Source: Escherichia coli (GTDB taxonomy: Bacteria; Pseudomonadota; Gammaproteobacteria; Enterobacterales; Enterobacteriaceae). Taken from it: DNA of 64,000 bases. The notes under the pieces were generated by a model. It had not been told where the DNA came from. It saw only the letters and a list, made by a program, of their open reading frames with translations, and ran no database searches. Both the position numbers and the translations under genes were made by a program. The DNA is taken from assembly GCF_041886205.1 (NCBI RefSeq), contig NZ_CP169029.1, one strand, 5' to 3'. Shown here one piece after another: positions 7,620 to 58,116 of this stretch (its first letter is position 1; the number at the start of each line of letters is the position of its first letter).

Positions 7620-8021
7620 TTAGTGTGAATATTCTTCTGTAATTTCAGCCAGATCCAATGCGTTATCTACCAGCGAGGTTATCTCAAGCAGGATATCTTC
7701 AAGAGAAGATTTAAGCGATAACGCCCCGAAAACAATGTAATACTCTTCCTGTTGTACGCTGGAGATCCCTACCGATGACAACGGCATCATCTTCTGATTT
7801 CTTAATAAGAAGGTATTAAATTCATCTGGATTGCTGATACTACTCACCGGACAAATAAAGGTTTCGATAATCATTTGGCGGGAAGTAAAAAGAATATTGA
7901 TTTGCAAATCGCCATAATCATTCATTTTAATAATTAATGCGTTCTCGCTATTTGTTACATCAATATTTTGTTCAGGTACAGTTTGCAGCGCTGTCGCTAG
8001 CGCCAACGGATTCCATGTCAT
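7620..8021 (-). CDS. yjfI: DUF2170 protein YjfI
   Basis: 133 aa ORF matching YjfI; first gene of yjfIJKLMC cluster. Confidence 0.8.
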   Translation of the reverse strand: MTWNPLALATALQTVPEQNIDVTNSENALIIKMNDYGDLQINILFTSRQMIIETFICPVSSISNPDEFNTFLLRNQKMMPLSSVGISSVQQEEYYIVFGALSLKSSLEDILLEITSLVDNALDLAEITEEYSH

Positions 8022-8879: not shown

Positions 8880-8903
8880 TAATGTACTCGTTGTTTACGT
8901 TTT

Positions 8904-9002
8904 GCCTGATGCACTACGTTTATCCGGCCTACATGATCTCTGCAATATATTGAATTTGCGTGATTATGTAGGCCGGATAAGGCGTTCACGCCGCATCCGG
9001 CA
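8904..9002. repeat. BIME (pair of inverted REP units)
   Basis: gcctgatgcactacgtttatccggcctac and gtaggccggataaggcgttcacgccgcatccggca in inverted orientation between rnr and rlmB. Confidence 0.6.
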
Positions 9003-9058
9003 TGAACAAAGCGCATTTTGTCAGCAATCTAACCCTCTTCTTTTAAAGAGGGTATTGA

Positions 9059-41339: not shown

Positions 41340-41906
41340 TTACTTCACGCGAGAGACGTATTCACCAGAGCGGGTATCCACTTTGATGACTTCGCCGATT
41401 TGTACGAACAGCGGAACTTTAACCACTGCGCCAGTAGACAGGGTAGCCGGTTTGCCGCCAGTACCTGCGGTATCACCTTTCAGGCCCGGATCGGTATCAA
41501 CGATTTCCAGTTCAACGAAGTTCGGCGGAGTAACGGAGATCGGCTGACCATTCCACAGAGTTACGATACACTCTGCCTGATCCAGCAGCCATTTAGCGTT
41601 GTCGCCAATTGCTTTTGCGTCAGCAGACAGCTGCTCGAAAGTTTCGTTGTTCATGAAGTGCCAGAACTCACCGTCGTTGTACAGGTAAGTCAGGTTCATA
41701 TCGACAACATCAGCGCCTTCAGCGGAATCAGTAGATTTGAAGGTTTTTTCTACGCGAGTACCGGTCAGCAGACGACGCAGTTTAACGCGAGCAAATGCCT
41801 GGCCTTTACCCGGTTTTACGAATTCACTCGCTTCAACCGCGTAAGGTTCGCCGTCTAACATGATTTTAAGACCAGCACGAAAATCGTTGCTATAGTACGT
41901 TGCCAT
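41340..41906 (-). CDS. efp: elongation factor P
   Basis: 188 aa ORF with the modified-lysine loop KPGKGQAF. Confidence 0.95.
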
Positions 41907-41947: not shown

Positions 41948-42976
41948 ATGGCGCATATTGTAACCCTAAATACCCCATCCAGAGAAGATTGGTTAACGCA
42001 ACTTGCCGATGTTGTGACCGATCCTGATGAACTTCTGCGTCTTTTGAATATAGACGCGGACGAAAAACTGTTGGCCGGACGCAACGCCAAAAAGCTGTTT
42101 GCCCTGCGTGTGCCCCGCTCATTTATCGATCGCATGGAGAAAGGCAATCCGGACGATCCGCTTTTGCGTCAGGTACTTACCTCGCAAGATGAGTTTGCCA
42201 TCGCGCCCGGATTCTCCACCGACCCGCTGGAAGAACAGCACAGCGTAGTGCCTGGTTTGTTGCATAAATACCACAACCGGGCGCTTTTGCTGGTCAAAGG
42301 CGGCTGCGCGGTAAATTGCCGTTATTGCTTCCGTCGCCACTTCCCTTATGCCGAAAATCAGGGCAACAAGCGTAACTGGCAAACTGCACTTGAGTATGTT
42401 GCTGCGCATCCGGAACTGGACGAGATGATTTTCTCCGGCGGCGATCCGCTGATGGCGAAAGATCACGAGCTGGACTGGTTGCTCACACAACTGGAAGCCA
42501 TCCCGCATATCAAACGTCTGCGGATTCACAGTCGTCTGCCGATTGTGATCCCGGCACGCATCACAGATGCGCTGGTTGAACGCTTTTCACATTCTACGCT
42601 GCAAATCTTGCTGGTGAATCACATCAACCATGCCAATGAGATAGATGAAACATTCCGTCAGGCGATGGCTAAGTTGCGCCGGGCGGGCGTTACTTTGCTG
42701 AACCAGAGCGTTCTGTTACGTGGTGTGAACGATAACGCACAAACGCTGGCAAACCTGAGTAATGCGTTGTTCGATGCCGGCGTGATGCCGTATTACCTGC
42801 ATGTGCTCGATAAAGTACAGGGCGCGGCGCATTTTATGGTGAGTGATGACGAAGCACGGCAGATTATGCGTGAGTTGCTGACACTGGTGTCCGGATATCT
42901 GGTGCCGAAACTGGCGCGAGAAATTGGCGGCGAACCCAGCAAAACGCCGCTGGATCTCCAGCTACGCCAGCAGTAA
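41948..42976 (+). CDS. epmB: EF-P lysine 2,3-aminomutase EpmB
   Basis: 342 aa ORF with radical-SAM CxxxCxxC motif (CAVNCRYCFRR). Confidence 0.9.
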   Translation: MAHIVTLNTPSREDWLTQLADVVTDPDELLRLLNIDADEKLLAGRNAKKLFALRVPRSFIDRMEKGNPDDPLLRQVLTSQDEFAIAPGFSTDPLEEQHSVVPGLLHKYHNRALLLVKGGCAVNCRYCFRRHFPYAENQGNKRNWQTALEYVAAHPELDEMIFSGGDPLMAKDHELDWLLTQLEAIPHIKRLRIHSRLPIVIPARITDALVERFSHSTLQILLVNHINHANEIDETFRQAMAKLRRAGVTLLNQSVLLRGVNDNAQTLANLSNALFDAGVMPYYLHVLDKVQGAAHFMVSDDEARQIMRELLTLVSGYLVPKLAREIGGEPSKTPLDLQLRQQ

Positions 42977-43008
42977 CTGATTAAACAGGGAAGTCAAAAA
43001 TTAAAATT

Positions 43009-43107
<99 letters not shown>

Positions 43108-43370
43108 AAGAGCAACAAACGCAAGTACAGCAACCTGTCATTAAACTGGGAAGTTTAATCTTTGCCCGTTGCATAACCTTTAATTATTCATATGCATTGC
43201 TGTTGTTACTTTTTATATAGCTAACACCAATAATTAACCTTTCTTTTCTGTTTATATAGAGTGAGCACGGCTATTTATGTTATTTTAACAACTATTACTA
43301 CCAAGCCCATTTATCTGGCTTATAAATTAAAATTAATTATTTAATTGAGAAATGGTTAGGGAGAACCTAC

Positions 43371-44240
43371 ATGGCCATAAGCATCAAGGGTGTTAATACC
43401 GGTGTTATTCGCAAGAGTAATAATTTCATTGCAATGGCGCTGAAAATTAAAGAACCTCGCAATAAAGAATCGTTGTTCTTTATGTCTGTCATGGAACTGC
43501 GCGACCTGCTGATTGCGCTGGAAAGTCGTCTGCATCAAAAGCATAAACTGGATGCTGCTGCACGCCTTCAGTATGAGCAAGCTCGCGATAAAGTCATTAA
43601 GAAAATGGCAGAAAACATCCCAGAAATTCTGGTTGATGAGCTTAAAAATGCCGATATTAATCGTCGGGTTAACACGCTGGAACTTACCGATAATCAAGGC
43701 GAAAATCTTACCTTCGTATTAACGCTACATGACGGTAGCAAATGTGAGTTAGTCGTCAATGAGTTGCAGATTGAAATGCTGGCGCGAGCAATCATTCATG
43801 CAATTAATAATGCGGAAATGCGTGAACTGGCATTACGTATTACCTCACTGTTAGATTTCCTGCCGTTATATGACGTTGACTGCCAGGAAAATGGCAATCT
43901 GGAATATGACACCTATTCCCAACCGGAATGGAAACATAACCTGTTCGACCATTATCTGGCGGTGCTTTACCGCTTTAAAGATGAAAGTGGCAAAGAACAA
44001 TTTAGCGGCGCAGTGGTGAAAACGCGTGAAGCAACGCCGGGTAAAGAAATAGAGGCGATCACTCGCCGAATGCTTGATTTCAGCCCACGACTGAAAAAAC
44101 TCGCGGGTGTGCCATGTCAGGTCTATGTTCGCACCGTAGCGGCGAATAACGCCCAACCGCTAACCCAGGATCAATGCTTACGCGCGCTGCATCACTTACG
44201 TGTTCAATCCACCAGCAAAACTGCACCACAGGCGAAATAA
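43371..44240 (+). CDS. yjeJ: uncharacterised protein YjeJ
   Basis: 289 aa ORF matching YjeJ; AT-rich gene preceded by a very AT-rich 5' region. Confidence 0.8.
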   Translation: MAISIKGVNTGVIRKSNNFIAMALKIKEPRNKESLFFMSVMELRDLLIALESRLHQKHKLDAAARLQYEQARDKVIKKMAENIPEILVDELKNADINRRVNTLELTDNQGENLTFVLTLHDGSKCELVVNELQIEMLARAIIHAINNAEMRELALRITSLLDFLPLYDVDCQENGNLEYDTYSQPEWKHNLFDHYLAVLYRFKDESGKEQFSGAVVKTREATPGKEIEAITRRMLDFSPRLKKLAGVPCQVYVRTVAANNAQPLTQDQCLRALHHLRVQSTSKTAPQAK

Positions 44241-44309
44241 TCTCATCTTTGCTAATGCGAGGCTGGAGCCATCCAGCCTGAAATGACTGATAACGTGATC
44301 GTTGGTCAT

Positions 44310-44408
<99 letters not shown>

Positions 44409-44432
44409 AATTATACGTTTGTCACCATCACA

Positions 44433-44786
44433 TCAGTTCGGGCACTTATAAACCTGACCGATAATCTGGCTATCCGTCGGGACAAAACTGGACAACATTC
44501 CCTGCGACGGGCTGCTGATGCCATAAATCACGTTACCGCCCATTGCAGCCGCCTGGTTGCGCAGATCGTTTGCTGCGCCGCGCATAGAACCGCCCTCTTC
44601 TCCGTGTTGCCCGGAAAGCCAGTTGCTTTGCTTACCTGTCGCAGTACCAATCAGCTGGCACTCTGCGCCTGGCTGCTCGTCCACAATGCGTACACTCTGA
44701 CCGGCAGCACTCAATTCGTTGCTGGAGCTACAACCCGCCATCAGTAGCGCGGCACCGACAATCCCTGATAAGTATTTTACGTGCAT
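44433..44786 (-). CDS. yjeI: DUF4156 lipoprotein YjeI
   Basis: Track ORF trimmed to MHVKYLSGIVGAALLMAGC start (117 aa, lipobox LMAGC). Confidence 0.8.
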   Translation of the reverse strand: MHVKYLSGIVGAALLMAGCSSSNELSAAGQSVRIVDEQPGAECQLIGTATGKQSNWLSGQHGEEGGSMRGAANDLRNQAAAMGGNVIYGISSPSQGMLSSFVPTDSQIIGQVYKCPN

Positions 44787-44923: not shown

Positions 44924-46582
<1,659 letters not shown>

Positions 46583-57354: not shown

Positions 57355-58116
57355 ATGAGGATTTGCAGCGACCAACCTTGTATTGTTTTATTGACTGAAA
57401 AAGATGTCTGGATAAGGGTGAATGGGAAAGAACCTATTAGCCTTAAAGCTAACCATATGGCGTTATTAAATTGTGAAAATAATATTATCGACGTCTCCTC
57501 TCTTAACAACACTTTGGTTGCTCATATTAGTCACGACATCATCAAAGATTACCTCCGGTTTCTGAATAAAGATCTCTCGCAAATACCAGTATGGCAACGT
57601 AGCGCTACGCCCATACTCACCCTGCCATGCCTGACGCCAGACGTCTTTCGCGTTGCCGCGCAACACAGCATGATGCCCGCAGAAACTGAGTCAGAAAAGG
57701 AACGAACACGCGCATTATTATTCACGGTGCTATCCCGTTTTCTCGACAGTAAAAAATTCGTTTCATTAATGATGTATATGTTACGTAATTGTGTAAGTGA
57801 CAGCGTTTATCAAATTATTGAAAGCGATATTCACAAAGACTGGAATCTTAGTATGGTAGCCAGTTGTTTATGTCTTAGCCCAAGTCTGTTAAAGAAAAAG
57901 TTGAAAAGCGAAAACACCAGTTATAGCCAAATAATCACCACCTGCCGCATGCGTTATGCCGTAAATGAATTAATGATGGACGGTAAAAATATCTCTCAGG
58001 TATCACAGTCCTGCGGCTACAACAGTACGTCGTACTTTATTTCTGTCTTTAAAGACTTCTACGGTATGACGCCGCTGCATTATGTTAGTCAGCACAGAGA
58101 ACGCACTGTCGCCTGA
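57355..58116 (+). CDS. adiY: AraC-family regulator AdiY
   Basis: 253 aa ORF MRICSDQPCIVLLTEKDVWIRVNGKEP matching AdiY; begins only 51 nt after the IS1 end. Confidence 0.9.
   Translation: MRICSDQPCIVLLTEKDVWIRVNGKEPISLKANHMALLNCENNIIDVSSLNNTLVAHISHDIIKDYLRFLNKDLSQIPVWQRSATPILTLPCLTPDVFRVAAQHSMMPAETESEKERTRALLFTVLSRFLDSKKFVSLMMYMLRNCVSDSVYQIIESDIHKDWNLSMVASCLCLSPSLLKKKLKSENTSYSQIITTCRMRYAVNELMMDGKNISQVSQSCGYNSTSYFISVFKDFYGMTPLHYVSQHRERTVA

Follow-up and report, generated by a model that had tools for sequence, protein, structure and literature searches.

The yjeJ locus of Escherichia coli: a core gene flanked by BIMEs, with relatives beside microcin exporters in other genera

The class II microcin clusters, such as that of microcin V (cvaC, cvi, cvaA and cvaB), are among the described systems closest to the gene family considered here, and they export their product through a C39-peptidase ABC transporter (PCAT), an MFP and TolC. 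Five components have been described for class II microcin systems, the canonical precursor, the MFP and the PCAT among them, and they do not include a soluble protein as long as YjeJ, at about 285 aa (PMC9746304). The known immunity proteins of this class are 51–216 aa long, membrane-embedded and encoded beside the precursor gene (PMC9746304, PMC12219008). The modules that contain relatives of YjeJ in other genera share precursors, MFP and PCAT with these clusters, but the classical E. coli clusters, by that five-component description, work without YjeJ, and E. coli yjeJ stands without a precursor, MFP or PCAT gene of its own.

Two other kinds of described element bear on the locus. H-NS-silenced xenogeneic islands are AT-rich, a property that is shared by the yjeJ promoter region and echoed in the below-average GC content of the coding sequence; yjeJ differs from such islands, however, in being a core gene that is syntenic, codon-adapted and expressed, with neither mobility genes nor an H-NS flag in genomic SELEX. 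The repeats on either side of yjeJ agree with known REP/BIME elements in their consensus, in the inverted pairing of Y and Z types around a short linker, in their position outside genes and in belonging to a kind of repeat found at hundreds of places per genome; the yjeJ-flanking pairs show nothing unusual, and an IHF site is not convincing. The feature as described is ordinary and already annotated, being an E. coli gene with a Pfam family (PF15922) and known repeats on both sides. An initial annotation had interpreted it as a horizontally acquired and probably H-NS-silenced gene, which proved largely wrong. What the present analysis adds to the annotated gene and its family is the split of that family into solo and PCAT-linked proteins, a plasmid form that consists of the N domain only, and the linkage to exporter genes. 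Out of it comes a specific, testable hypothesis, in which a gene of the E. coli core is connected with class II microcin systems.

Gene order and conservation of the yjeJ locus

The window analyzed here is a stretch of 64,000 nucleotides of an E. coli chromosome, for which strain 6EVA is the best match (99.9% identity) and to which K-12 is 98.6% identical. The yjeJ coding sequence (43371–44240, plus strand) specifies a protein of 289 aa that belongs to PF15922. Its conserved left neighbor, evident both as an ORF and in the annotation, is epmB for the EF-P beta-lysylation protein (41948–42976, plus strand), with efp (41340–41906, minus strand) beyond it. The conserved right neighbor is yjeI (44433–44786, minus strand), which encodes a DUF4156 lipoprotein and is followed by groL-groS (groL at 44924–46570, minus strand). 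Amplicons of ampC have been reported to end repeatedly in the spacer between yjeJ and epmB (PMC12625342).

With a 1.6-kb query across the locus, a coverage of 80% or more was obtained in 5382 of 5426 complete E. coli genomes, and the gene was always annotated as 'YjeJ family protein'. A cross-genus scan, in which a 10-sequence query was run on a single genome for each species, gave 48 loci, and the 47 from Enterobacteriaceae were compared. The order efp-epmB-yjeJ-yjeI-groL was retained in 44 of them, across more than 14 genera; at the remaining three, yjeI and groL were not detectable within the stretch fetched. The genera of the scan include Escherichia, Citrobacter, Pseudocitrobacter, Kluyvera, Superficieibacter and Salmonella, as well as Trabulsiella, Yokenella, Intestinirhabdus, Kosakonia, Phytobacter and Pluralibacter, and two loci from Atlantibacter, which were added later, have the same gene order. 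The identity of the YjeJ protein drops with phylogenetic distance from 99% to 42%, and that of epmB is 83–97% across the 47 related loci. Within Escherichia, yjeJ has a dN/dS of 0.05–0.07, similar to that of epmB.

The promoter and leader region of yjeJ (43109–43370, plus strand) is AT-rich, at 31% GC, and most genera have, as the ancestral state, an AT-rich spacer of 125–230 nt. Genomic SELEX assigned a constitutive RpoD (sigma-70) promoter for yjeJ to the epmB-yjeJ spacer, and the proposed sequence, TTAACC-17-TAGAGT (43234–43262, plus strand), comes from the same work (PMC3946193). In the cross-genus alignment this sequence is conserved only within Escherichia. A scan for two-hexamer promoters gave no match 5' of yjeJ, and it was the alignment that revealed a candidate extended −10 element, TGtTATTTT (43278–43286, plus strand; TG at 43278–79 and the hexamer TATTTT at 43281–86), situated 93 nt before the ATG. 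The pattern TGnTAnnnT occurs 60–110 nt upstream in 37 of the 47 solo loci, and about 32 of those 37 have the fuller TGnTATTTTA, 84–104 nt before the start codon, suggesting that the extended −10 is a phylogenetically conserved promoter candidate for yjeJ. Transcription from it would be predicted to start about 77–80 nt before the ATG, at about 43292–43295. A GGTT-AGGGAG-AACC block (43354–43367, plus strand), in which the Shine-Dalgarno sequence lies within a 4-nt inverted repeat, is likewise conserved across genera. The YjeJ protein has been quantified by proteomics in LB (PMC9508795), and the gene has been cited as Nac-regulated (PMC7417836). It is well supported that yjeJ is a long-standing core gene with its own promoter and a fixed position.

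YjeJ relatives in microcin export modules

Every divergent chromosomal relative of YjeJ that was examined lies in an export module, 11 modules in all, and in each of them the genes run MFP-PCAT-YjeJ on one strand, with YjeJ 9–36 nt downstream of PCAT and an HlyD-type MFP preceding the PCAT. The hosts are Klebsiella grimontii, K. quasipneumoniae, K. pneumoniae, Entomohabitans, a Scandinavium-like genome, Budvicia and three metagenomic contigs. One to three genes nearby encode glycine-rich peptides with double-glycine (GG/GA) leaders, as in MKELTVFEMDTISGG followed by YSWDF..., and the YjeJ gene is always beside the PCAT gene, not beside those of the precursors. The modules are usually located in the epmB-yjeI interval, and they often occupy the site where E. 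coli holds only yjeJ. In K. pneumoniae, two modules flank a fimbrial operon between epmB and yjeI; the Budvicia module is at a different chromosomal site. One contig (L069) has the order epmB-wHTH-microcin-MFP-PCAT-YjeJ-yjeI, its module exactly filling an interval that in E. coli contains only spacer and yjeJ.

The modules also stand out in composition and in their rates of change. In Enterobacteriaceae, the MFP, PCAT and YjeJ genes of the modules have 36–47% GC, compared to 55–62% for the flanking core genes, and the glycine-rich precursor genes mostly have about 49–55%. From module to module, the PCAT proteins are 73–90% identical and the linked YjeJ proteins only 25–50%. An ancient foreign origin of yjeJ is plausible, given that its family is part of AT-rich microcin modules elsewhere among the genera. 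It was also considered whether YjeJ might itself be a secreted PCAT substrate; this was rejected, as its N terminus (MxxxIKGxNTG) has no leader consensus and is modeled confidently as a beta strand.

At the E. coli locus itself, the ORF list of the window has no precursor, MFP or PCAT gene adjoining yjeJ, and it is only the PCAT-linked relatives of other genera that lie in a class II microcin cluster. Nor do the E. coli spacers around yjeJ hold any relic of a PCAT, MFP or microcin gene, so that E. coli can only be inferred to have lost a module from its line, and the modules may instead have been inserted in the other genera. All syntenic proteins, that of E. coli included, form a solo clade that was separated in 100 of 100 neighbor-joining (NJ) bootstraps, and in this tree, which was built by NJ only, the PCAT-linked group itself is not well supported (39 of 100). 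The solo proteins are mostly basic (pI 7.7–9.5 in 14 of 17), whereas the PCAT-linked ones are acidic (pI 5.1–6.1), and one genome (L055) has the two types side by side. Members of the family are also found without an exporter on Serratia conjugative plasmids, and a 163-aa form with the N domain only, again without an exporter, is encoded after parF-parG on E. coli plasmids about 30 kb in size. Only seven unnamed proteins were found as relatives of this plasmid form.

The explanation that is favored, with a confidence that goes a little beyond even, is that yjeJ is an old, vertically inherited and non-essential core gene whose family is tied to microcin export elsewhere, that E. coli has the solo clade of this family, and that the BIMEs came later. 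In Klebsiella, Entomohabitans, the Scandinavium-like genome, Budvicia and uncultured enterobacteria, an AT-rich class II microcin module would end with YjeJ, the genes ahead of it being, in order, one or more glycine-rich precursors with double-glycine leaders, the MFP and the C39-peptidase ABC exporter (PCAT). E. coli would have only the separate solo paralogue, expressed from its own putative extended −10 promoter with a strong ribosome-binding site. The protein is predicted to be soluble and cytoplasmic, with two domains built from beta-sheet-plus-helix modules, and in the producers it would most likely work as a partner of the microcin exporter, in cargo handling or in self-protection. The solo YjeJ of E. 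coli appears to have kept the fold and the invariant residues of the C domain with a changed surface charge, and its candidate ligand may be a peptide or a nucleic acid.

The link between YjeJ and microcins is one of gene order only. The tight coupling to the exporter genes, together with the toxin-like rates of divergence, is suggestive of a cytoplasmic protein that takes part in the handling of microcins or in self-protection. A bolder version, which is unlikely, would make the YjeJ family an unrecognized fifth component of a class II microcin system widespread among enterobacteria, a soluble and cytoplasmic protein, translationally coupled to the PCAT exporter, that handles or neutralizes glycine-rich precursors, with E. 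coli yjeJ as a stand-alone descendant that possibly protects against Klebsiella-type microcins. If the link is functional, YjeJ would be assigned a role, a gap could be filled in the Klebsiella-type modules examined, which show no conventional immunity gene, and the finding would bear on the competition between E. coli and Klebsiella in the gut.

The fold of YjeJ and readings of its function

YjeJ matches the Pfam family PF15922 (YjeJ-like) over residues 1–283 of 283 profile positions, with 578.5 bits (gathering score, 27 bits) and E=3e-174, but this full-length match is to an entry that carries no function. The family spans 275–291 aa in length, and an exhaustive search of 1.84 billion representatives yielded only 97 YjeJ clusters, all of them apparently from Enterobacterales. 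In NCBIfam the only match was to adenosine deaminase and far below threshold (15.9 bits, the cut-off being 510); no match came from PADLOC and none better than E=0.0095 from PHROGs, and sequence and profile searches of the PDB gave nothing for YjeJ. The initial annotation had called yjeJ a gene of unknown function with no recognizable catalytic motif, and this description held, as no homologue of known function turned up across Pfam, NCBIfam, PADLOC, PHROGs and the PDB.

An alignment of 24 full-length members showed W187 and K217 to be invariant, and at least 90% of the family have kept D162 and Y167. The most conserved stretch is LDFLPLYD (161–168) of the C domain, and both the solo proteins and the closer members have it intact. 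The AlphaFold (AF2) model of YjeJ has a pLDDT of 93.1 and a pTM of 0.88, and comprises an N domain (about 1–160) of two strand-strand-strand-helix units and a mixed C domain (about 161–289). No TM-like segment is present, the maximum of the 19-residue hydropathy profile (KD19) being 1.23 and falling inside the confidently folded globular model. Foldseek searches against the PDB and BFVD returned no match for YjeJ at E≤0.001, and no internal sequence repeat was detected among the three sheet-helix units (hhalign probability <5%). The structure prediction and remote homology search proposed earlier as a check therefore ended in a confident model with no significant relative of known function.

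The modeled fold does recall Pur-alpha, a resemblance that is to be taken as a lead, not as a family assignment, and from it comes the rival that survives best. According to this reading, E. coli YjeJ would be a PUR/PC4-like (Whirly-like) binder of single-stranded DNA or RNA, acting as a regulator or a nucleoid-associated factor, and would at present have nothing to do with microcins. Both the Pur-alpha-like fold and the basic pI of most solo proteins would point equally in this direction, and in view of this fold and of the change of charge in the solo clade, nucleic-acid binding by E. coli YjeJ should be regarded as a serious rival, even if it is put at rather less than an even chance and nearer to a minority view. 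There are several differences from the Pur-alpha and PC4-like folds, in which a pair of beta-beta-beta-beta-alpha repeats makes up a domain of about 150 aa. Neither similarity at the sequence level nor a significant Foldseek match relates YjeJ to them, no internal repeat is detectable in its sequence, the units of YjeJ have three long strands, not four, and YjeJ has an extra, conserved C domain. It is in this C domain, outside the PUR-like part, that the most conserved residues are found; moreover, the PCAT-linked relatives are acidic, and the linkage to an exporter in 11 of 11 modules is left unexplained.

A second rival keeps the microcins and gives E. coli yjeJ the part of an orphan, immunity-like gene against the glycine-rich microcins of Klebsiella-type gut neighbors. 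The K. pneumoniae module mcc1-mcc2-MFP-PCAT-YjeJ offers some ground for this, as it has no other candidate for an immunity ORF and no small TM ORF is evident in it. The fast divergence of the PCAT-linked YjeJ proteins beside conserved exporters is also what is seen with toxin/immunity pairs (for the principle, see PMC9746304), and yjeJ is under strong purifying selection in a setting without the module. Published immunity-gene pipelines would have missed YjeJ in any event, because their size filter (250 aa or less) excludes longer proteins (PMC9746304). However, at 289 aa, with no TM-like segment and with its gene beside PCAT, YjeJ does not look like a class II microcin immunity protein. The known ones are small membrane proteins encoded next to the precursor, and the microcins act from the periplasm, whereas YjeJ is predicted to be soluble and cytoplasmic and its gene adjoins PCAT, not the precursors. 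A difference in charge separates the solo clade from the PCAT-linked one as well, and orphan immunity genes are usually variable rather than core genes with a conserved promoter. Such a role for E. coli YjeJ is accordingly doubtful.

Base composition, the BIMEs and the question of transfer

The very AT-rich stretch of some 260 nt 5' of yjeJ that had first drawn attention to the locus was borne out by computation: the 263 nt at 43108–43370 have 31.2% GC, the window mean being 51.7%, and only 0.17% of the 263-nt windows in the 64 kb are as low. The AT-run ttaattatttaattgag is located at about 43333–43349. The lower GC content of yjeJ itself relative to its neighbors was likewise confirmed (45.2%, against 52% for the window), with 45% GC3 and the fourth lowest GC among the 52 long ORFs of the window (z about −1.7). 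The proposed check on GC and codon usage came out divided, the GC content being atypical and the synonymous codon preference lying at the window mean (log-likelihood 0.139, with 0.123 ± 0.085 for the window). The GC of yjeJ is below that of epmB at 46 of the 47 loci, and it tracks the host, reaching 63% in Pluralibacter. As the deficit is present in 46 of 47 loci and GC follows the host, it is a long-standing property of yjeJ, and both the low GC and the AT-rich leader characterize the gene family and do not betray a recent transfer.

Each side of the gene bears a BIME. BIME-A (43009–43108) consists of a Z-type REP (43009–43038), a linker (43039–43072) and an inverted Y-type REP (43073–43108), and BIME-B (44309–44409) of a Y-type REP (44309–44344), a linker and an inverted Z-type REP (44380–44409). 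The Z-type REP of both reads GCCTGATGCG...CTTATCAGGCCTACA and the Y-type REP GCCGGATGCGGCG...CGCCTTATCCGGCCTACA, the REPs being inverted around a linker of 34–35 nt in each. BIME-B is an inverted copy of BIME-A, with Y-type arms that are 100% identical over 36 nt. These positions agree to within 1 nt with those given for the repeats in the initial annotation (43009..43107 and 44310..44408). They are REP/BIME elements by their imperfect palindromes of about 30–36 nt with the consensus GCC[GT]GATGCG...CTTATC[CA]GGCCTAC in inverted pairs, by their extragenic position and by their copy number, E. coli genomes having a median of at least 39 places that match. Further REPs of these types are present in the window, at about 2163 and 8902–9005. 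BIME-B has an IHF-like motif with one mismatch at 44356, of which BIME-A has no counterpart, and BIME-A has a sub-threshold Rfam match to naRNA4, which is REP-derived.

The claim that these BIMEs bracket an islet could not be upheld, as they vary between strains independently of the presence of yjeJ. In E. coli ATCC 25922 (phylogroup B2) both BIMEs are absent and yjeJ is present, between spacers of 234 and 49 bp; O157:H7 has the downstream BIME, not the upstream one, and keeps yjeJ; and E. albertii has no upstream BIME (259-bp spacer) and keeps yjeJ too. The corresponding spacers in other genera are about 125–230 and 40–100 bp. Because both elements are absent from ATCC 25922 and the upstream one is missing in O157:H7 and E. 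albertii, the BIMEs joined an already resident yjeJ within Escherichia; both are later REP insertions that differ between strains, and not the borders of an island. The yjeJ spacers of some strains also have an inserted IS621 or IS1, with IS621 in the yjeJ-yjeI spacer.

A horizontally acquired, BIME-delimited and H-NS-silenced islet is consequently a very improbable account of yjeJ. It can draw on the upstream region and the coding sequence, whose 31% and 45% GC are among the lowest in the window, on the AT-rich accessory modules and plasmids in which the YjeJ family is found elsewhere, and on the fact that AT-rich tracts of such length can bind H-NS. It is contradicted by a gene that belongs to the E. 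coli core genome, keeps its synteny across more than 14 genera, is typical in codon usage and has a GC that tracks its host and a dN/dS of 0.05–0.07, and by the strains in which yjeJ is kept with one or both BIMEs missing. The presence of yjeJ is not patchy, as would be expected of a recent islet, nor do its borders carry signatures of mobility such as an integrase, a tRNA or direct repeats around an insert, the ORF list of the window having no genes of this kind and the flanking BIMEs being inverted and polymorphic. From these comparisons of sequence and gene order, a recent transfer appears largely refuted. A phage origin was also tried and rejected, as the matches in a 'phage collection' were only to chromosomal fragments of Salmonella or E. 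coli. Silencing by H-NS is not supported either, given the constitutive RpoD promoter and the protein detected in LB. The yjeJ/epmB spacer had no H-NS flag in genomic SELEX, in which the neighboring cadBA and adiA spacers were flagged (PMC3946193). H-NS binding at yjeJ is thus unlikely.

That yjeJ might be a decaying relic with no function in E. coli is scarcely credible, for although the deletion is viable and has served as a neutral linked marker (PMC10679819) and disabling changes are found in S. diarizonae and S. arizonae, virtually all E. coli have the gene intact, its dN/dS is low, its promoter and Shine-Dalgarno sequence are conserved and the protein is detected. The changes in Salmonella are of more than one kind. 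In S. diarizonae, yjeJ has lost its start codon and gained an internal stop, in S. arizonae the match comes in two pieces, and on two S. enterica contigs there are two CDSs annotated under the yjeJ match.

Spacers and repeats flanking yjeJ

In other genera, insertions recur in the spacers flanking yjeJ, which form a hot spot for them. In Kosakonia and Phytobacter (related loci L040, L043 and L050), a gene for a methyl-accepting chemotaxis protein separates yjeJ from yjeI, and in C. youngae (L012) an ORF of 572 amino acids encoding an unknown product separates epmB from yjeJ. Within E. coli, the presence of the BIMEs differs among lineages, as seen when the two elements of the window (43009–43108 and 44309–44409) are set against the related loci L064, L065 and L066. 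Both BIMEs are found at yjeJ in K-12 and the window strain, only the downstream one in O157:H7, and neither in ATCC 25922. IS elements were also encountered; the yjeJ–yjeI spacer of some E. coli strains holds IS621, a member of the IS110 family, and IS1 is annotated at the yjeJ locus of others.

The spacer between yjeJ and epmB (window 42977–43370), within which the upstream BIME lies, has been described as the recurrent start point of ampC amplicons under amoxicillin selection (2025 paper, PMC12625342). This BIME is a plausible recombination site.

The yjeJ translation start, RpoH binding and other low-GC ORFs

The Shine-Dalgarno sequence of yjeJ lies inside a GGTT-AGGGAG-AACC block (window 43354–43367) that is kept in many genera, and the block could form a 4-bp hairpin with the Shine-Dalgarno sequence in its loop. 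By genomic SELEX, a binding peak of the RpoH holoenzyme (type D, intensity 4.9) was reported within yjeJ (PMC5493296); the gene occupies window 43371–44240, and the peak is a few hundred bases from groL-groS. The GC content of two further ORFs in the window is below that of yjeJ, one of 133 amino acids on the minus strand (7620–8021; 38.6% GC, with a stretch of 30% GC at about 7850) and one of 253 amino acids (57355–58116; 41.4% GC).

Relatives of YjeJ on plasmids and in Klebsiella pneumoniae

On the E. coli plasmid pLAU-OXA4 (L052, 7144–8492), a 163-amino-acid protein has a match confined to the N domain of YjeJ. The E. coli plasmids that carry the gene for this form, 10 of which matched, are about 30 kb in size; the gene follows parF-parG at a distance of 27 nt and is adjoined by a RelE/ParE toxin-antitoxin pair.

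In K. pneumoniae, the epmB–yjeI interval carries two AT-rich modules encoding an HlyD-type exporter partner (MFP), a C39-peptidase ABC transporter (PCAT) and YjeJ, one on either side of a chaperone-usher fimbrial operon (L057/L059, 3692–8864; L058, 4622–9861). The second module is preceded by two tandem double-glycine microcin genes of 121–122 amino acids, and a small immunity ORF of the conventional type is not seen. The first module of strain 176 has a frameshifted MFP.

yjeJ in Salmonella and in unrelated assemblies

In Salmonella (loci L028 and L045; matches H69 and H71), yjeJ looks like a pseudogene. The start codon in S. diarizonae is changed from ATG to ATA and is accompanied by an internal stop, the match in S. 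arizonae is broken into two pieces, and both loci also lack the conserved yjeJ promoter motif. On two S. enterica contigs, one labelled serovar Infantis and the other subsp. houtenae, the match overlies two CDSs annotated as “hypothetical protein”.

Contigs with E. coli yjeJ, at 98–99% identity, were also found in two public assemblies of unrelated organisms, labelled Bacillus coahuilensis m4-4 (L003) and a Bacteroidales MAG (L017), and are almost certainly assembly contamination.
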